A stretch of DNA of 64,000 nucleotides, from NCBI GenBank assembly GCA_010015585.1, contig ML975155.1; one strand, given 5' to 3'. Positions 8,106 through 22,871 of the stretch are shown in pieces. A program made the translations under genes and the position numbers. Within the stretch, counting starts at the first letter, position 1; the number at the start of each line of letters is the position of its first letter. The stretch is from Eremomyces bilateralis CBS 781.70. Taxonomy: Eukaryota. The notes beneath the pieces are model-generated. The model did not search any database and was not told the DNA's origin. It saw only the letters and a program-made list of their open reading frames with translations.

Positions 8106-8609
8106 TGGATTATTTGTGAGGACGAATGTCTCTCAAGTGCTCGATAAAACCGGGAAGCACTCCTTTGAAAAGGATATTTGCTCTAACTAGAATATATAAC
8201 GGATAGTTAGTTAACTACACTGATGATAGTTAGATAATTCATAGTTAACTAAGTTAACTAATACCAAATAGATAGAGCGTCGTCGAGGGAGCGATCGGCT
8301 TATCGATATGGTAAGCAGAGCGCCGAACCCCGTGACATCGTGGCTCAGTCGCGTGCCTGCCCTTTCGGGACGCGTCTGCCGAACCACCTCCAAATTCCAA
8401 TTCACACATCACCAACATAAGATGTTTTCCTCGCCTCAATGTTGATTTTGTGTCCATCGATATAATATGACCAAATCTTGCTAGGTCTATCATTCGCTTC
8501 GACTTGATTTCGTTTTCAGCCTCAGACATGTATCCAACCATGCTTGTCGGCTCCCTCACCGATCATTCGCTTTGACTGCAGCTCACATACATTGACATCG
8601 CACTCTATA

Positions 8610-10346
8610 ATGGGAATGCGGCGGAGCATGGGGTCGAGCTGGGGGCCCGTATCCATCTTCGTTGACAAGAAATTGAAGAGGGATAGGTCGAAGAGCCCCA
8701 AGAAATCTACTACCGGTGACAGCATCGCAGCAGGTACCGGAACAGGCACTGCTGGTAGACTTGACCCATCCGAGCTGTATATGAATGTATCAGGTCCTAC
8801 TCCACCGCCGAAGGATTACGAAGAGAATCGAAGTTCAGTTCAAATGGAAAGTACCCAAGAACAGTCAACACGAGCATTGGACACATACGAACCGCCCATG
8901 ACCCAAAACCTTGCGGCTCCTCGATGGGCCTTCGATAAGAACCAGAGTGAAAGCTACACACAGTCGCAGACTAGCAGAAATATTGCCGATCAACCTAGTT
9001 TGCAGCAACAAGACCATCACTATGGAGCATCTCATTCATTGTCCCACATCAATGGCAACCCCCGCTCAGAGTCTGAGCCTCTGTATCACGAAGAGCAGCC
9101 CGATTACGATGAAGATGAGAATGAACTGGAAGCCACCGTCCGATTCAATCCACTTACTAGAACATCAAGCATCCAGGTTGAAGGAAGTCCTGGAAGCCAA
9201 CTCTGGTCAAATGCGGCAGCTGGGGATGATTCCTTCCACGCTCCCTTCGCCAGTGGAGACAAACCAGATCATTACCCTGGATTTCAGCATGAACAATCCG
9301 ACTGTGATGAATCCTTCTACGAGGAGGATGAACCCGTGATAATCACGCATGAAAAACACCCTGGATCAACCGACGAGTCTCTGGTTGATCCCCAATACCT
9401 AGGAGACCGTTACGGCCCTCTCGAGGCGCGTCCGAGCATCGCTAACTTTGCAGAGACTGCACAGAGGCAAAGTCCAAAGCCCGATCCACCCAAGGCGCCT
9501 GAGGTCCATGGCTCAACGCAATCAGCGACGTCAAACAGTGTGTCATCTCTGAAAAATCGGCGACGTTCCTTAAAGCCTGCTCCTCTCAGGATTGGCCACA
9601 AGCGGTCTGGGTCTTGCCCTGCTGTTCAGAACTCCAGTCAAACACGTCCAGCACCGGGTTATCATGGCCTTGCAACCCCTCAGCAATCCAGCGACTCTCA
9701 CGCAACCTCACCGGCGGTACAACAACACCCTTCCGACAGGACAAATTTCAATCAAGCTCGCACGACGCACTCCATAGGCCTTGGGCAGGCCAATGTTCGT
9801 CTCGCTGAGAAGATTCAGAATCTTACTGCACAAGGGTACGCTACTGTCCGGCCTTTGATTCACGTTCCTGAGGAAGAAAACCATGTCAAGAGCGACGCAT
9901 CTGAAGCGAGGGACCTTGATACCCTGGAGTATCCACCAGACGAGCTCCGAGCCCTGTCCTTTGACGCCCTTCGAAAAGCGACATTTGATCCTACCCCATT
10001 CCAGAATCCCATAAGTCCATCGACCGCCGCAATTCCGCTAGACTCACTTTCTACCCAGCTGGCCGCGAAGATCCACTCCTCTCCAGATGAGCAGAGTGAA
10101 CTCCTTGCTTCATTGACCCTTAAACAGTGGGACGAAGCCGGCGACTGGTTCATCCAAAAATTCACCGATGAGATGAAGAAGATGGTGGAGTTGCGGAAGG
10201 AGAAACGGAAGCGGGAAGAGGAAATTGAACTGGAAGTTGCGCAGCGGAACGACAGTGTTGCGAGGAAGAAGAAGCAGATTGAGGAAGCGATTGACAGAAT
10301 GAAGACGGACGGTGTTAAGGTGCTTCGGAAGGGCCAGGCAAAGTGA
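8610..10346 (+). CDS. Disordered protein with C-terminal ECM11-like coiled-coil domain
   Basis: Long ORF; LEYPPDELRALSFDAL...WDEAGDWFIQKF followed by coiled coil; first ATG at 8610. Confidence 0.65.
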   Translation: MGMRRSMGSSWGPVSIFVDKKLKRDRSKSPKKSTTGDSIAAGTGTGTAGRLDPSELYMNVSGPTPPPKDYEENRSSVQMESTQEQSTRALDTYEPPMTQNLAAPRWAFDKNQSESYTQSQTSRNIADQPSLQQQDHHYGASHSLSHINGNPRSESEPLYHEEQPDYDEDENELEATVRFNPLTRTSSIQVEGSPGSQLWSNAAAGDDSFHAPFASGDKPDHYPGFQHEQSDCDESFYEEDEPVIITHEKHPGSTDESLVDPQYLGDRYGPLEARPSIANFAETAQRQSPKPDPPKAPEVHGSTQSATSNSVSSLKNRRRSLKPAPLRIGHKRSGSCPAVQNSSQTRPAPGYHGLATPQQSSDSHATSPAVQQHPSDRTNFNQARTTHSIGLGQANVRLAEKIQNLTAQGYATVRPLIHVPEEENHVKSDASEARDLDTLEYPPDELRALSFDALRKATFDPTPFQNPISPSTAAIPLDSLSTQLAAKIHSSPDEQSELLASLTLKQWDEAGDWFIQKFTDEMKKMVELRKEKRKREEEIELEVAQRNDSVARKKKQIEEAIDRMKTDGVKVLRKGQAK

Positions 10347-11765: not shown

Positions 11766-13442
11766 TGCGGCGCATGCTCTGGATGAACGGGTGAAGATAG
11801 GAAATACCGTCGAGAATCACCTTCTCTGATCCTGTGCTTCGAGAATAAAGAGGAGGGTTTCCGAAGGCCGACAGAGGCTCCCATCTCTACTTACGGCGAT
11901 CTAGAAGTTACGGTCAAGCTTTTATAGGCACGGTATTCCATAACCTTGGTCGGCAGAATGCCGTGCGAATGACACATTTCCACTAATAATACAATGCTGA
12001 AAGCAAATCAGAAACACCGGGTTATCTTGATTCGCGATGAGAGGTTAAAAGGGATGACGAATTTAACGATCCACTATCCAGTGATCTCCGGGGTGGATAC
12101 TGGATGCATACTCGTCGCCTCGCTTGGTGATTCCTTCACGCATGTGCCGTACGGCTTCCGTCCGGTACGTCATGGACTTGCGGTGAATAAAAATCGTGAT
12201 AATGAGCCATGCAAGACTTCGAAAAACACAGAATGACTGGAACAGAACAGATTTAGGCCGGGCAGGGACATTACGCCCCTACACACTAGGTGCGTACCGT
12301 GATTCCATCCAACCAACAGACAGGAATAGGTTGGAGGATTTCCAGCTCTTGCAATTGAACACAATATTACCGTTTAGGATACACCAACATCAATAATAGG
12401 CTAGGGTAGAGAAAGCACAAGGCGATGAACGAAGCTCTATATTGGCGATCGCTTCGTGCTTGTGCACGAGCTAGTTGAATGAGTCCCGTCAACGGTTGAC
12501 CCGGTTGCACTATCCATATTGCTGCTCAGAGGGAAAAGCTCAAATCTCAAATGCAATTCGCGGCACCTTCGGTTCTCCAGTACTGTAGAAGACGGTCTTC
12601 GTAAAGCAGAGTCGGTCAGTAGCTGAAAGCAGTGCGCTCGCGAGACAAAGGTTGTGCGAGTCGTTCTCTCGGGTGTCAATCATCTTTGTTCGATTATCGG
12701 GACAACTGTGTTTGCAGTCGGACTAGGACTCAGGTACACCCAGCATCCAAAGTCCAATCGGGCATTTGGAGTATTGAAAGCTATGTTGTTAAGCTGAGGA
12801 TGAGTCTGTTGGAAGCTAAATGGTAGGTATGTAGGGAATTGCCACACCTTCGAAACATGCAAAATGCAGGTGAGCTTGGACGTCGTCGCAGTTAACAGGG
12901 GCTAGTTACGGTATTAAGGAGTCGTGCCGTCCAGCTGAAACAAGGTCGGCCTCTAGAGTTCAGGCTCGATTGACGAAGTTCGAACAGAAACTTGCACTAT
13001 TATTATCGTAACCTGCTATGGATGGCTGCGTCCCCTCAACGACAAACCCAGAATTGGATTGGGAAATCATGAAGACCTGTTTCCGATTGTACGGAGTACT
13101 AGGTACCCATCCAAAGACACTTGGTGTCCGTTCCCGCATGCTGGATACAGCATGAATTGTGAAAAGAAATTCTTGTCCTAAACAAGAGGGTGATAATTAG
13201 GACGCAGATATCCTAAGATCATCTCGAGAGTGAACCATTCATCCAGGATGTAATTCCAAGCAAAGAGAAGGAAAGAAGGTCATCAAATGCATAGAGTATC
13301 CAAGTCTGTTCCGTGATAACTCTGAAGTAATAGGCTTCTCCATATACGAAGGCAACATCGACTCCAACGTCAGACACCAAAGGAGACATGGCCCGTGTTC
13401 CAAATCGGCATTTGGTTGCCACCCGTCGTACATATGATCCCA

Positions 13443-15825
13443 TCAGACGACGACGAAAGTTTCCCGTTGGCTCTGGTCGTGGAGCAGATCCATAAGCCCG
13501 CTCTCGGGGACAAAGCCGCTCCCCTTTCGGTTTTGAGGATCAAAGGAGAATCGAATATACCCTCTTCGCTCGAATGTCCCAGGATGTGTCGTCGAAGAAG
13601 ACACCGCAATGCCACAAAGTCCACTGGTCCCATATCTAGCAAGAGGGAGGAAATATTGTGGAAAGCGCACAGGCGTTGTCGTATCGGCGGTGAAATACGG
13701 ACCTGTGTTCGTGTTCATTGTGGACGTGCTGAATTTTTCTAGTGCGGTCAAAGCGATGGCATAGCAGCCCTTGTTCCCGGTGGACTTATAAATATCGCCA
13801 ATCGTCAGCGGTACGCATCCGACCCGAACTACTTTCCCCGGGGCCTGCGAGATGTTCAACCCGACATGTTGTGAGACTGTCGGAAAGTGTTCCACAACCT
13901 CCACCGTTGCAATCTGCGGTTGAGGCTTCACTTTCCTGTGATTGACGGCAGCATCAATAGAAATCCAAGGCCAGGAAGGCGAGATCCCTGTTTCAACTGA
14001 GTCACTTTCGGGGAGCCTCTCCCAGAGCAGCTCATGAACTAAGTACGGCTCCCAGAGGCCCGCAATGTTTCTCCAACTCATTCGCCGCTCCACGGCAGAT
14101 ATTACGCCAGCGATTGCAAACTCCCTGTCTGACTTCAGCGTCAGAGACGATCTTGTATAGCAGCGAAGGATTTGGCGCCAATGATCGTAAACCTCATCTG
14201 GGCTGGGCTCGAGCGGCCCTAGAAACCTGGAGATGACCGGAATGGGCTTGTTAATGATATATTCGTGAAATTTGGTCTTCATGTCGTTATCACAGACTGT
14301 TTCCAAGACACCAAATTCGTCGCGAACCATTTCATGGCACTCCCATTCTAGGTAAGAGCCGAAAAGCAGCGTTCGGGGTGGTAATAGGCGCTCTTGGAGA
14401 ACCCAACCTCTTCTATGTAACGCCCAGTCGGGATCCACAGCATCCTTCGCAAACCCTCCGTTGAGATTGGTGGTCCAGTGAGGGAGCGCTACCACGCTTT
14501 CTCCCTGATAGTTTCGTGCTACTTGGCAGGGCATATACATCAGGGGATCTCGGCGAGCAAAAACGCCTCCCTCATTGTCAGAGGATCCTAGTGCAGCAAT
14601 GCAAAGAAAACAATTCTTGTAGACTTCAAACATGGAATCGAACTCATTCGACGTGATTTGGTGAGTCTTCTCCTCATTCGAGTTTTGTAAGATGCACAGG
14701 GAGTCAACCCAAAGCCACCTTAACCCAAGGCTGCGAGTCACATGGATTACGTGCTGGATTGTCTTTGGAAGCTTGTGGACCGCAATCCCGGAATTGAGAG
14801 AGGCCGTATTCGCCGATGTCAATCCAATGCAGCTGTTGCTACCCCAGCAGTAACTCAATGCTGCATACTTGAAAGGCAATTTAGCCGGCAAGTGCGCTGT
14901 TGGACCAACTCTAACCATTTGTTCATTTGGGGCCCCGACGTCAATGATTCGCGTGGGTCGGAACCCCTTGTGACTGGAATTGCATCGTTTATGTGACTTG
15001 ATGCATTCGTCCATCCACTTTGGAACGATGCCTGATATGTCGGAAGACGCAGTACTCGCCGGACGAAACCCCTTGAGACTGCTTTGCGGCCCTTGATCGA
15101 ACCATGCACCCTGATCGTTGTCATATTTCGTGTCGATTTTCAGATAGACTCTGGCTCCACGTAAGAGTTCATCAGGCTTGTTCTTGATGCTTGCCGTTAG
15201 GAACATCTCGCGTAGAGATATTTCGGCACCTTCCACATGCACTTCCACAGAAAGGGTTGAGCCGGCCTGGACTGCCGATAAAGCCTTGTTCTTGAACCGT
15301 TCACGGTGCTGTGTGTTAGGGGGGAACTTGCTATTATAGTCAAGGAGACTGAACCAGAACAAAGTACACAGATAGCAACCTCTCTAATACGCATGTTCCA
15401 AACATTCACCGGTTCGATGATGGCTGAACAGTTGGATTCCGCATGGGAGGGGTTTCATCAACTCCTAGGTCAAAAACGACCTCAATCGGACGCAATTCGC
15501 ACAAAACGAGTTGAATTGCACTCGAGATGGGACTGGGAAGTTTTGGTCTGAAATATTTGTAGCCGGAGAGAACTCAGGCCAGGAGACAAGCGGGCGGGAT
15601 GTCCGTTGCGGATAGTGATCTTTGCAGATTTAGCACTATTGTGCAGAAACTTCGCAAGGCTGTACGTAGATGCTTACTGTCTTCGACGGCTCTAACTTCC
15701 CTCCAACCAGATCGTTGCTTGTGGTGGTTCCCATCATCCGCCCTGCACTTCAAATGTGCTGGCAATGGCAGGACCGTGCTGTGGGAACGGCTGTTCAAAA
15801 TTTCACTGCTAGCCCACGACGTCAT
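13443..15825 (-). CDS. HET-domain protein; the 5' region carries two in-frame TAG codons (pseudogene or recoded)
   Basis: PTRIIDV, YAALSYCWG, WLWVDSLCILQ, RGWVLQERLL; predicted exon 1 15825-15678 and intron 15677-15620; TAG at 15467-15465 and 15386-15384. Confidence 0.85.
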
Positions 15826-16957
15826 TTTGTGAGCACCTTGATTCCCGGATCTAGGAAACAAGGCCAACTAAAACCACAGTTTGCAGACAATCAGGAGGTG
15901 ACTCGGAGAAAGGCGGGTAAGAGTAGAAGTATATGGGCTTTGCGCAGCATGGAATAGTAGGATTAGGGCATTGTAGCAAGGGCAACGGACTCAAAAACGG
16001 GGTAGAAAAGGAGAAGACCGGGGGATTGGAAGATAAGAGAATTGGAAAATTGGAAAATTGCACATTAAGAAGAGGATATGGACTGTAAGGAGGTCGACCA
16101 ACAGGCTTGGACGCCATGCTATGCTATCATATGAGTTATCAGAGTTCGCGCATCTATATGGTCAGGATCTTCACACGGAACTGACTAATATCACACGGCT
16201 GAGAGAGGTCGCCGTTTCATGGAGGCGATGATGAAGGATATCAAGGCTCCCATCTCGGAAACTTTTGGAGGTGTAGTGTGAAAAATGTCGGGCTGTGCAT
16301 GCGATTTCGGTTCGATGGAATCGGGCAAAAGACTGCCTTCTCTCGACAGACCCTCCCAACCACCAGGCGGTCAGTTATGATCGTTGGCGAATACCTTGAT
16401 GGTTATCAGGAGATATCATCGCAAGGAAGGCGGAGCATGAAGATGTGTCCATGAATGGACTGCCTCGCCGGACGGTAAACCATTGTAAGGCAAGTTAATG
16501 TCGGGGTGGACCAGCTATTTGATCACCTGAGTTCTGACCCTAATACCAGTAGGTGTATAAATCAAATTCGATGCGAAATGACAGCAAGAATCTCAACCTT
16601 CGGATCTGATCATCAATAAACCGAAAGCTGAGGTGGAACAGAAGTGAAACGGACCTGTCATGGTACTTTCGAAAAGGTTGCATCCCCCTGCTTTTCGGCT
16701 GTAATTACACCTCAGCTGCCATTTGCTGCCATCACGACAAACCACTGTCTGGCACCACATGGCACCAAATGGACGATAGGAACCAAAGGAGTTGCGCTCA
16801 AGATGCATGGTGGCTTGCGCGAAATGATATCTAGTACTCCGTACGTTAGTCTACTCTACCACATGAAAGCCGAAATCTACCAGTCATTGCCTGGACTCTA
16901 TGACGGTATCAGTCATCCAACCGTCTGCGTCGCAAGGCCCTAAAGTCAGGAGGCCAT

Positions 16958-17994
16958 TTATGACTGCGCACCACCAGCCTTCTTTTCATCCATCTCCTCC
17001 CAAGCCTTCTTGACCCGTTCAAGACATCCGCCTTCTCTGGACAACGTCGCATCCTTGAGACCTCTCCAGAACTCCTCTCTTTCCCGAAGCACGGTCTCGG
17101 TCCACTCCCTCATCTCTTTCAATTCGATGCGACATGCGGCATTACAGAACTCGCTGAGATCCACACGTCCATCCCGATATCGCTCGTATTCCACCATTTG
17201 CAGAACCAATTCCACCTTATCCACATCGTGCACGAACACGCTCTCCGGTGTTTGTGAATCCTCGTACTCTTCCCAGAGATCTTTGATCTCCTTTGCTGCG
17301 TGCCCGCTGTCAACATTTCCCAACAGCTCTCCACAGAGCAGCTCCATCGTCTCCCGTTCCCGTCGGGACTTCTCTGGCTTGCTGACCCCGTCCACCGGTG
17401 TGATGTCCCCGACCAGACTTTCCGCCATATCATGCACCAACGCCATCCGCGTACATCTATCGATATCGAGCTTCGATCGGAGTGCTGAAGGCGCGAGCAT
17501 GGTGATGATAGCCATACGGTACATGTGATCGGATACGCTCTCGCCGTGAGTGAATCCGAAGCGGCGCCATCCTTCTCGCTTTGTTGTCTTCAGCTGTTCT
17601 AGTAGGTGAAAGAAGGGTACTGGTGACGCCGAATTCCGTGGAGGCTGGTACTTCAGGGTTGATATGACTATCATGGGTCAGTTACATTCTATTTACGTTA
17701 TGGCTCCACATCGCTAGTGGAAGTCATTTCCGGCGGTATGGGGGAGGAGGGAGAGAAGGGGAGTAGGAGGAGGCACTGCCTACGTTCGGCCAGCTATTGC
17801 TCCAACATCGGGAGTCTGGAGTCTGGACTCATGCGCTCTTCTCACGTACCAGATTCGGGGGTCCAATGCGAGCTCGATGCTTCGGTCGGAGTCATGGTAC
17901 CTGAAGCGGAGTCTCGTAGTCAGCATATAGATTAGAAGACCAAGTACATCAAAGCCTTACCTGGCGCACCGTTGGTCTCTGCTCCATCAGGCAT
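16958..17994 (-). CDS. HD-domain 5'-deoxynucleotidase (HDDC2/YGK1-like), 2 introns
   Basis: KREGW, ESVSDHMYRM, LVHDMAES, DVDK; spliced N-terminus MPDGAETNGAPG-TMTPTEASSSHWTPES-VIST. Confidence 0.92.
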
Positions 17995-18483: not shown

Positions 18484-21054
18484 ATGTCTCGTGCTCCGTC
18501 CGGCCTGAGCTCCAATTCCTCAACACCCGATCAGCTTCCTTCCAAGTCGTCCGCCAACCCCTTGAGCATTATCTTGTTCGTGAGAACCCTAAGGCTGCTG
18601 GATTTGGATCGGTTGGATGATTGGCCGGGAATATCACCTCAGACTTTCTCAACTAAAGATTCCACGCAGAATCAGAAGGCCAGGATCAAGGCTACGGAAT
18701 GGGCTTTGTACCGGTTGTTTGAACTATGGAATCCCGAGGAGACCAGGGAGGTGAGCCATCCTCCAACAACTACGTGAGCAATCCATGGATAAGTGAGCTG
18801 ATTGTTTGGACGTCATCTATAGAAACTTCTCCCGTTCTTTCCTCCGCTCGAACCCCTTCAAAGCCTTAATCTCCGCGCAGCCCTCTTCCGAAGTTTGAAT
18901 GAGCTGAAGAAGAATGGCGTTCTTGGCCGCGATATTATTCTGCGCCGCACGATGCTCGATGATTGTAAAGGGGACAAGTTCAATGACATCCTGATTGGAT
19001 TTTCCTCCGCGGTATTGAAGAAGGAGCTATCTCGCAAACCGACCCGGAAGAGTCATGTGTCTCCGGCCCAGAAGCTGGCTCTATCAAACAGCCTGACTCC
19101 CAAACAACAATCGTCCTTACTACCACTTGCAGTGGCACATAAGGCTGCTTTATCTGCTGTGCTGAAGCGGAAGGCGGAGCAGAAAGCCAGGCTAGAAACA
19201 TTGGCGAGTTTTCTCAACGACAAGAGACAGATGCTTGCCCGTCGCCATGAAAAGGGTCGGTTGGAGATTCGAGAGCTCCAAAACGCGGGTGGTCCACAAG
19301 AGAGCAAAGAGGATGTGAAAAGAGCATTGCAGAATCACTGGCTCGGCGATCTGGCTTGGCTCGACGTGCTAGTCAGTGGAGACCAAGGAGACCCTTCGGA
19401 AAGGGACTTTGAGCGACCCTGGAAAGTCGTTTGGCGCAAACACCTGTACGGAAAGGACCCTGAGGGCGAGGAGCGCCCTGTTGGTCTATTGGAAGACCTT
19501 CAAACTCGTGTTCGTGACCAGCAGGAGCGGCTCGAGCAGTGGAAAATCATCCATGAGCGCACACGACAGCTGATCGACCAGTCCGATACCTTCGCACGAA
19601 AGCTGCATGCTCGCCAAACTACCTCCGCGTCGAGGTTTGACAAGCATCTGGATCTAAATCTGGACAGTATCTCAAAGTCTGGGAGTGGTCGGCTCACCGC
19701 TGGAGCCGCGAGCCCAATGAACCCAGAGGTCCAGGCCGTCCTCGCTGAACTTAATGAAAGTATACAGAAAACCGCAATCAGCCATCGTGGGCAAGGGTCA
19801 CAAGGCTCTCGCAGAGGTCCATCCCAACGGCCAGTCCATGGTCGTCAAAACAGCATCCCCCTAACCCGCATGGCGAATGGGAGGGGCCAGGAATCTACGT
19901 CTCCCAGCGAGGACTCTGGAACATCCCGTGGACATGGATTCAGACCGCTCCCGGTGCGGACAGACAGCGCAACGTCTAGCAGACAGTCAACTAGAGGGCT
20001 ACGTCCGCTGAGTCTGCTTGCTATGTCGCCCGTCAAACTTCCCGGCCAGAGCCAAGGGCCTTCCCCGAACGCTGCGTATGAGCGCGGCTATTCGCCTATG
20101 CGATCATCCAACTTCTCGTCCCCCGCCGAAGGACCCAGTCCAGATTCCAGGAGCCCAGCAAGTGAAGCAGCCGGTGAATACGTAGACGCGCGGAATGGGT
20201 CGACGTTGAGCAACCCATCGCCGAACCCATTAACCCGTGCTCCCACCATGCCTCCACCAAGCCGACCGTATCTCTCCTTAAGCGAACGGACGCGACTTTC
20301 TATGGCACCTGTGGGTCTCGCTCTCTCAGAGTCTGACGAATCACCTCCGGCGGAAACCGACCTTGGTCAAGAGAAGGATAGCTACGAAAAGCGCCATGCA
20401 GAACTGCTGGAACGTACGCGTCAGTCTATGCGGCGAGCAAGCGTGGCACATGAATCGGCGGGGTCCGGTATCGACAATCCCGGCAATGCCCCCACAGGAC
20501 CTAGACATGAACGATCGGTCTCTCGGCCAAAGAGTTCCCACACCGGAAAGCGCGGGAGCGTGTATCATTTCCCTGTGAACGTTTGGGAGGCCGAGAGCCC
20601 AGAAACGGGGAAGAATCAGCCGCTTCCCAGGGTTCTAAATGACTTCGAGCCGACGAATGTTGCCGATGAGCAGGATGACGGCGTGGAACCGCCAAGCAAG
20701 CCACTTCCGGCGCGGCGTACACATACAGTTGACTCTTATATTGGGGTAGAGGCCAATGACGACAAAACCCATGCTCACCCAGCATCAATGGTGTCAGGAG
20801 ACACAATTGTTAAGGGCGATATAAGCGCTTCAACGCTCTCCGATCGAGCTAGCCGAGCGTCTTTGAGTCCCGGAGGAGAAGCATTTGCAGCATTAAGGGG
20901 CAAGACGACGCCGAGGAGGGATGCTACGCCCACGGAGATGCTGTTCAGCCCTGCTGCGGAGTATTCAAGCGTCTTTAAGAGCAGGCCTAAGATTGCAACA
21001 AGTCCTGTTCTCATGCCGGCAGATAATGACGACGATGTAGATGGAGTGGATTAG
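18484..21054 (+). CDS. HAUS6 (augmin subunit 6) N-terminal-domain protein
   Basis: LRLLDLD..DWPGI, EWALYRLF, PFFPPLEPLQSLNLRAALFR, LRRTMLDDCKG; intron near 18751-18821. Confidence 0.8.
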
Positions 21055-21254
21055 CGTCGGGGCTTTCTTTATGTTCGAGCGTTCTTTCATTTTGAAGCGT
21101 TCCTCACTGACACGCGGCAGCGACTGTACGCCCTAACGTTGACGTTTGAGCATTTAGATTTTCGGTACCTATCAACACGAGATATCAAATTTCTAATAGC
21201 GCCTTTGATTACAAAAGTCGTCCCTGATCCCCCAATGGCGATACACGTTTTGCC

Positions 21255-22871
21255 TTACACTTGCTTCGCGACTGTCTCGGCGCACCTCCTAGCTAACGCA
21301 ACTAAGGTCAAGCTCGGATTCCCGGCGGGCGAGCACGGAAACACCGAGTTATCACAGGCATACAAGTTCTCAATTCCCTCGAACTTCAGGTTCTCATCCA
21401 CCACGGCCTTCTGTCCATTGACAGGCATACTCAACGTCCCGATCTCGTGCGCCACGCCTCCCACGTCGGCCTCCTTGAGATTCGGCAGGCCATCCGCTTC
21501 CATCAGAGCGTCTTCACCCAAGATTGACTGAGCGTTGAACCTCTCGAGAATGCCTTTGGCCACGTTTCGTGCCTCTGCTAATAGCGCAGGGGGCACAGGA
21601 GCTCGCTCCATGTAGATGTTAACAGGGGTACCGTAGTCGCCGTTAGGCGCAAGAGTCACGGAGTTTTGCTGCATGAGCGGCGCATAGAATTGGAAGACGA
21701 TCTCGCATAATAGATACCCATTGCGGATATCCATATCGTCCTCGATGTGATCTTTGTCCACGAAACGGCCTTGATTAAACTGAGCGCCCAGCTCGAGGAT
21801 GATGTCGAAGGCATGACTGTCAAGCGTTGCCGCCCGGTGCCGGATCAGGATTTTGGTCGATTGCGGTTCCACTCGAGGAGGCGCAACCCTCGGGACGTCA
21901 GGGGTAAGCCCAAGCATTTTAAGAGTCTCTGGTGGGATAACAAAATGACGGTAGTAGATCGCGTGGTCAACGATCCCGTTGCCAATCATGTCGTTTGGGA
22001 TTTTGGAGTTCAGGGCGATCTTGGCGGACTCGACGGTTCCGGCGCAGAGAATCACCGACTTGGCTTTGTAATGCCGTTCCTTCTTGTCCAAAAGGTCCCA
22101 ACAACGGACTCCATTGACGCGTTTGTTGTTCCCATCTTCGAAAGTTACATCCCACACGGCGTGGTTCACATTGACAGTGATGCCCTGTCTAGTGACCTGC
22201 CCTTCATTCATTCCCTCTGCCAAAGAATCTTCCAGCAGGAGATCCACAGATGAGAATATTCCAGCGGGAACACTCCACTCGGTGGCGCCCGTATATTCCA
22301 CTGCAACTGGGGCCGGGAGAATCTCCCAGTCCTCTCGTAGCAGATCGGAAAGCACCTCAGTCGCTTGGACATGGAAATCCTTCAACTCCGGGACGTCCGC
22401 GTTGAACACTCCTCGTGCCAGGTCGTAACCATTCCCTTCGAGTAGGAACTTTTGGATATCCTTCGGCCATACTTCCAGCTCCCATGCGGCCAACGGGGGG
22501 ATGGAGCTGCCCCAAAATATGCTGCGCCCACCGAGGTTGAAACCTTGTCCGCCGTTGTACATCGATCCCGGTGGAGTATTGTAGTTTTTCACACTGAAAT
22601 ACTCCCAAAGGGACCAAATATGCTTCTGAAACTTGCCAATCATCAATCGGCGAGGGAGATTCCCAACATGGGTGGGGAACAGCAACGAGCCCGCTTCGAG
22701 GACCAGCACCTTCTTCTTCTCGTCCGCGAGGGCGCTAGCGACCACACCTCCGCCCATGCCAGAGCCTACGACGATTACATCGTAGACCTCCTGCTCGTCG
22801 CGGTTGCTTCGGAGGAGCAAGTCGGTCAGAGTTCCAGATTCAGTGATCAGTACATTACGTTGGGGAGCCAT
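21255..22871 (-). CDS. GMC-family FAD oxidoreductase (pyranose/glycoside oxidase-like)
   Basis: DVIVVGSGMGGG, VLVLEAG, LCAGTVES, catalytic HEIGT and NPSLT; intronless 538 aa. Confidence 0.88.
   Translation of the reverse strand: MAPQRNVLITESGTLTDLLLRSNRDEQEVYDVIVVGSGMGGGVVASALADEKKKVLVLEAGSLLFPTHVGNLPRRLMIGKFQKHIWSLWEYFSVKNYNTPPGSMYNGGQGFNLGGRSIFWGSSIPPLAAWELEVWPKDIQKFLLEGNGYDLARGVFNADVPELKDFHVQATEVLSDLLREDWEILPAPVAVEYTGATEWSVPAGIFSSVDLLLEDSLAEGMNEGQVTRQGITVNVNHAVWDVTFEDGNNKRVNGVRCWDLLDKKERHYKAKSVILCAGTVESAKIALNSKIPNDMIGNGIVDHAIYYRHFVIPPETLKMLGLTPDVPRVAPPRVEPQSTKILIRHRAATLDSHAFDIILELGAQFNQGRFVDKDHIEDDMDIRNGYLLCEIVFQFYAPLMQQNSVTLAPNGDYGTPVNIYMERAPVPPALLAEARNVAKGILERFNAQSILGEDALMEADGLPNLKEADVGGVAHEIGTLSMPVNGQKAVVDENLKFEGIENLYACDNSVFPCSPAGNPSLTLVALARRCAETVAKQV

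Follow-up and report, generated by a model that had tools for sequence, protein, structure and literature searches.

Two in-frame TAG codons in the N-terminal Cys/His module of a HET gene from Eremomyces bilateralis are probably ordinary nonsense mutations

The window analyzed here is a stretch of 64,000 nucleotides from contig ML975155.1 of Eremomyces bilateralis CBS 781.70 (assembly GCA_010015585.1). It is gene-dense and otherwise ordinary, and its genes include ECM11, HAUS6-like, GMC oxidoreductase, NAD kinase and SP-RING genes. A nearby aminopeptidase P ORF shows 100% identity to a named E. bilateralis CBS 781.70 protein, with 62% for the next best match, and an HD-domain gene is situated at 16958-17677. 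On the minus strand, a single frame extends from 15629 to 13446 and is broken solely by two TAG codons. A first-pass annotation had placed two in-frame TAGs at exactly these positions, and these codons as well as the peptide string that it had read upstream of the open frame were reproduced exactly. The approximately 645 stop-free codons it had counted downstream are 646 codons followed by TGA. The residue numbers used below refer to P0001, the 728-residue translation of the locus with an X at both stops (X55 and X82). The features of the locus are as follows:

15678-15825, minus strand: putative exon 1, with the ATG at 15825-15823 and comprising 49 codons plus 1 nt (148 nt)
15620-15677, minus strand: putative 58-nt intron GTAAGC...TGCTAAA...AAG, with the donor at 15677 and the AAG at 15620, joining the flanking parts in phase
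15468-15619, minus strand: start of the N-terminal module up to the first stop, YPQRTSRP ... FCANC, the latter containing C43 and C46, both invariant in the alignments
15465-15467, minus strand: first in-frame TAG, X55, in the context CC-UAG-GAG
15387-15464, minus strand: stretch of 26 codons between the stops with the conserved HH.TG..LE..Y, alignable with 25 homologs without a change of frame
15384-15386, minus strand: second in-frame TAG, X82, in the context UU-UAG-AGA, with the invariant GC..C two residues further on
13443-15383, minus strand: open stretch of 646 codons plus TGA, encoding GCYLC, a linker, W205-C209-H213-C216, the HET domain and the C-terminal part
15204-15206, minus strand: first ATG past both stops, M142, opening a 587-codon ORF and serving as the start of the database gene model P0243
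14391-14867, minus strand: HET domain PF06985, residues 255-413 (Pfam E = 9.9e-27)
13956-15206, minus strand: span of P0243, which leaves out two in-frame stretches and ends at residue 558

Some further observations were made in the surroundings of this gene. At 8508-10346 on the plus strand, 3 kb from the HET gene, there is an ORF that carries an ECM11 domain at its C-terminus. The HAUS6-like ORF of 743 codons is followed, beyond its TAG and in the same frame, by another 158 open codons (21052-21528, plus strand). Since these extra codons overlap the 3' end of an antisense GMC-oxidoreductase ORF, the open extension is probably an effect of the antisense ORF. The HET locus itself is flanked by a 17-nt inverted repeat (16 of 17 positions complementary) at 13089-13105 and 16828-16844, with the two arms 3722 nt apart. 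As the flanks carry no target-site duplication, this repeat is probably due to chance.

The affiliation of the gene to the HET family is clear from the match to PF06985, which reaches 94.5 bits at a cutoff of 22.5 and covers the profile from position 1 to position 146 of 146. The C-terminus of the ORF (...ETFVVV) is typical of the family according to the homolog alignment. Ahead of the HET domain, the residues C43, C46, G84, C85, C88, C209, H213 and C216 are invariant across 26 aligned sequences (the window gene and 25 homologs), and the frame of the window gene aligns with the homologs ahead of, between and beyond both stops. The succession CxxC ... HH.TG..LE ... GC(H)LC upstream of W...C...H..C, by which the subfamily is recognized, is present in the window gene, with a tyrosine in place of the histidine of GCHLC that is shared by 22 of the 25 homologs. 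The earlier remark that a CxxC..HH..GCxxC motif often precedes HET domains is a fair one for this subfamily; a strict CxxC...GCxxC occurs upstream of HET in 29 of the 120 matches of the first search.

The HET family is very large (36,125 representatives at E ≤ 0.001 in the exhaustive search). The word-indexed and the exhaustive protein searches returned no close ortholog above 38% identity. The best match of residues 1-330 in the word-indexed search was 29% identical, and the best foreign full-length relatives in the exhaustive search of representatives showed 34-38% identity. In the alignment column of the first stop, the homologs have Glu (six), Val and Leu (three each), Ala, Ser, Asp and Lys (two each) and Thr, Gly, Asn, Ile and His (one each). 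The column of the second stop is occupied by Leu (seven), Lys (five), Arg and Gln (three each), Glu (two) and Ala, Met, Val, Ser and Ile (one each). An AlphaFold2 model based on a 35-sequence alignment had a mean pLDDT of 69.9 and a pTM of 0.79, with block means of 55-85 in the N-terminal module. A Foldseek comparison with the PDB gave 0 matches at E ≤ 0.001, and a faint similarity to nucleoside 2'-deoxyribosyltransferase (probability 0.30) was not significant. The structure predictions carry no weight for the verdict on the stops.

The unspliced HET frame cannot start at an ATG here, since the ATC at 15629-15627 is closely preceded by an in-frame TAA. The first-pass annotation had proposed an ATG exon at 15825, joined by the 58-nt intron. 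Both elements are indeed present and in phase, and among 10 phase-compatible ATG/GT combinations this solution is the only one with a consensus donor. Moreover, homology to the family starts directly after the proposed acceptor. However, when the upstream 600 nt were shuffled, an equally good exon/donor solution arose in 486 of 3000 cases, and the putative exon 1 has neither a Pfam match nor support from the family. As far as can be judged from the sequence, an exon 1 at 15825 is plausible. Alternatively, one could speculate that an ancestral ATG near 15629 has been lost. The ATC right after the in-frame TAA (15627-15632, minus strand) opens the HET frame 11 codons ahead of the conserved 'RP', and in approximately 10 of the 25 homologs the initiator Met, as read off the alignment, is found at most 13 residues from that conserved column.

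An uninterrupted frame from start to stop is not present in the HET gene, since it contains the two TAGs and no intron with a consensus donor removes them. Between 15617 and 15300 there is no GTAAG, GTGAG or GTRNGT donor anywhere, from which it follows that the stops are not removable by splicing. A strict enumeration of solutions with one or two introns and consensus donors yielded none that bypasses the stops. A permissive enumeration yielded 612 GT/GC-AG pairs overlapping a TAG, and many pairs of this type preserve the frame; we rejected the idea that the stops are spliced out, because the donor of every one of these pairs is non-consensus. The two enumerations together also exclude that the TAGs are parts of splice acceptors, which the first-pass annotation had named as an observation that would speak against its own proposal.

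The existing gene model does not reveal the stops. P0243, a protein of 376 amino acids, matches the locus with 100% identity, but it starts at M142 (ATG 15206), after both of them. The two stretches it omits, 14564-14505 (60 nt) and 14309-14247 (63 nt), both encode residues conserved in the family, and the ORF runs on beyond the end of the model to the family-typical C-terminus. Because conserved stretches are left out and the end comes early, P0243 is likely mis-modelled. When the unmodified 587-aa ORF was looked up in the protein collection, no exact match was obtained. This calls for some caution with annotations, since a model with 100% identity silently begins past the stops and appears to be mis-spliced elsewhere.

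The first question is then whether the UAG codons could be passed during translation or could be explained by their origin. Readthrough of both codons would give a little full-length protein. The frame is open past both stops, as this would demand, but nothing else points specifically to it. With two events in succession, the small efficiencies of both would have to be multiplied, UAG-G and UAG-A are not known as 3' contexts that promote readthrough, no Rfam element is present in 15000-16200, and the window is devoid of tRNA genes and thereby of a suppressor. We thus regard readthrough as extremely unlikely. Concerning the origin of the stops, the first-pass annotation had offered two CAG to TAG hits of the RIP type, and had considered Gln to fit the motif at least as well as Trp. 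RIP changes CpA to TpA. Both TAGs could have arisen from a CpA through a same-strand C-to-T change, and three of the 25 homologs have Gln in the column of the second stop. At the first stop, however, none of the 25 does, so that Gln is not an obvious ancestral residue. The RIP signature is missing. With thresholds of 0.89 for TpA/ApT and 1.03 for (CpA+TpG)/(ApC+GpT) as the background, the gene has values of 0.54 and 1.29, both normal, and the 246-nt segment preceding the second stop has 0.33 and 1.35, normal as well. TpA/ApT does not exceed 0.73 in any of the 32 2-kb windows, AT-rich tracts are missing from the vicinity (GC content 0.50), and a repeated copy is absent within 12000-17000. On the grounds of normal indices, GC content and the missing repeat we rejected the locus as a RIP-mutated sequence, and RIP as the source of the two stops is very unlikely. 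A sequencing or assembly error, or mutations limited to the sequenced culture, would be a further explanation, but two independent substitutions 81 nt apart, both leading to TAG and situated in clean sequence, would be hard to obtain in this way. The genome set that includes E. bilateralis is described in PMC7082219 as consisting of AllPaths-LG Illumina or polished PacBio assemblies. We consider this explanation highly improbable.

The most elaborate proposal was a stage-specific switch, in which sexual-stage A-to-I editing recodes both UAG codons to UGG (Trp) and a full-length HET protein arises in ascomata only. Several points fit this. Both stops are UAG, and in F. graminearum an edited A is preferentially surrounded by C or U at -2, U at -1, A or G at +1, G at +2, and again A or G at both +3 and +4, as given in PMC9600606. 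The first stop (CC-U-A-G-GAG) agrees with this preference at 6 of 6 positions from -2 to +4 and the second (UU-U-A-G-AGA) at 5 of 6, and the single mismatch of the latter concerns +2, the least important position. Taken over 16 long ORFs of the window, the in-frame baselines are 407 of 8600 (4.7%) for a match at all four free positions and 1002 of 8600 (11.7%) for -2, +3 and +4, and the corresponding baselines for TAGs in any frame of the window are 2 of 107 and 14 of 107. The joint chance of both flank matches is thus about 0.5-1%. The N-terminal module has not decayed. Genes with two premature stop codon (PSC) sites are known from Fusarium (6 of 71 PSC genes), where TAGs according to PMC10776026 'often' derive from codons other than TGG. 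Finally, E. bilateralis, an isolated, dung-growing Dothideomycete, produces cleistothecia, whereas no asexual morph is known for it, as described in PMC4150071 and PMC7082219. The species fruits readily when cultured. On the other hand, folding of ±30 nt places both adenosines in stems of the MFE structures, with probabilities of being unpaired of 0.46 and 0.05, and a hairpin loop at the A was found in 0 of 1000 and 1 of 1000 sampled structures. In Fusarium, 62% of the editing sites are in hairpin loops, which is a preference and no absolute rule, and 33 of the 107 control TAGs of the window fall in such loops. None of the 25 homologs has Trp at either stop column, although these homologs are just 23-35% identical. 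There is also no reason why editing should have both its sites within the first 11% of the gene. As summarized in PMC11156358, editing is reported from Sordariomycetes and Pyronema only and was not found in cleistothecia of Aspergillus nidulans or in Botrytis cinerea apothecia; a Dothideomycete is therefore outside the lineages with demonstrated mRNA editing (see also PMC11087585). The interaction of Ame1 with Tad3, which enables editing, is presented in PMC11087585 as an innovation that arose in Sordariomycetes. Among the papers searched, those that name both A-to-I editing and the Dothideomycetes do not deal with editing in this class, to judge by titles and abstract openings; in PMC10041177 the class merely serves for comparison. 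The main text of PMC10776026 mentions no HET gene as one of the Fusarium PSC genes. Editing of both codons is thus very unlikely, and that a Dothideomycete edits two UAGs in the canonical YUAGRR context in its ascomata, so that the HET protein is complete in sexual tissue only and headless or absent in hyphae, appears distinctly improbable to us. The switch proposed in the first-pass annotation retains a degree of support from the agreement of the flanks with the Fusarium preference, and it is weakened by the stem placement, the host and the lack of Trp in the homologs.

We therefore return to ordinary nonsense mutations, which have probably turned this locus into an N-truncated gene or a young pseudogene. 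In weighing truncation or pseudogene against editing, the first-pass annotation had left the matter undecided, and the truncation reading is the better supported of the two, although not with the RIP mechanism it had been coupled to. All likelihoods given here are our own rough weighing and were not computed; they include a low prior for editing of the Sordariomycete type in Dothideomycetes. Under the preferred reading of nonsense mutations, a HET gene of the CxxC...HH...GCHLC subfamily would have had its module cut off by two single-codon nonsense substitutions. These stops would not be bypassed by splicing and would most likely not be recoded. The remnant would be the intact 587-codon ORF from ATG 15206, which retains W..C...H..C together with both the HET and the C-terminal domains and from which a headless product could still be made. 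While the stops, the continuous frame, the homology on either side of them and the lack of consensus donors and of a RIP signature are evident from the sequence, we infer that the stops are of recent origin and that the stump may be expressed.

The distribution of the two stops is informative in this regard. Approximately 4% of random substitutions in the HET ORF would be nonsense and TAG would account for 39% of these, so that the chance of both stops being TAG is about 0.15. Under uniform placement, two stops within the first 78 of 724 codons have a p-value of 0.012. Such N-terminal clustering fits a useful downstream part and a dispensable head. At the same time, the module is as similar to three homologs (26-30% identity) as these are among each other (23-32%), and it matches 16 of 20 conserved columns (rank 10 of 26), compared to 71 of 86 and 17 of 20 in the downstream regions. 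The lack of extra decay in the module suggests either that the lesions are young or that such tests lack power below approximately 10% divergence. If drift alone were at work, it would be somewhat surprising to see two nonsense hits but neither a frameshift nor visible decay in the module. Between a headless gene still under constraint and a young pseudogene we have only a slight leaning, which is towards the constrained stump.

If nonsense mutations are indeed the explanation, the locus represents a further case of turnover in a very large and fast-evolving HET family. If, in contrast, editing took place, sexual-stage A-to-I recoding would be extended to the Dothideomycetes and tied to a cell-death gene. 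This would bear on the question posed in PMC11156358, namely which classes of the Pezizomycotina edit their mRNA.

It is instructive to compare the locus with known systems. The Fusarium graminearum and Neurospora pseudogenes whose PSCs are repaired by sexual-stage A-to-I editing (PUK1 and AMD1; 71 genes in PMC10776026) resemble it in having an in-frame UAG, sometimes two, within an otherwise intact ORF. The window gene differs from them in belonging to another class and in having neither hairpin-loop placement nor any Trp in the stop columns of its homologs. Among the HET proteins, those with CxxC...HH...GCHLC (e.g. P0244, P0245, P0003 and P0004, as well as named HET-domain-containing proteins of Leptodontidium sp. 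and Lepidopterella palustris) are the closest in architecture, and the window gene has the module, the core of the HET domain and the ...V.LV at the C-terminal end in common with them. Unlike in these relatives, the module of the window gene is interrupted by two in-frame TAGs, and there is no in-frame ATG when unspliced.

There are also HET proteins that are naturally short-headed. For 114 of the 120 matches of the first search a HET start motif was found by a regular expression (the remaining six were dropped), and 41 of these 114 start with a Met, show fewer than 120 residues between the N-terminus and the HET motif, and have no strict module. The ORF from 15206 would be like such proteins (e.g. 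P0007 and P0029), as its HET motif would lie at a distance of 112-113 residues from the Met, and it keeps W..C...H..C, as do 24 matches without a strict module. However, the short form in the window is a truncated long form, in which it differs from the natural short-headed proteins, and among the short-headed forms in the databases, too, some may be truncated models. Inactive (null) het alleles occur in populations of Podospora and Neurospora, and the loss of incompatibility genes is tolerated or favored there. The loss at the locus described here may be of a comparable kind.
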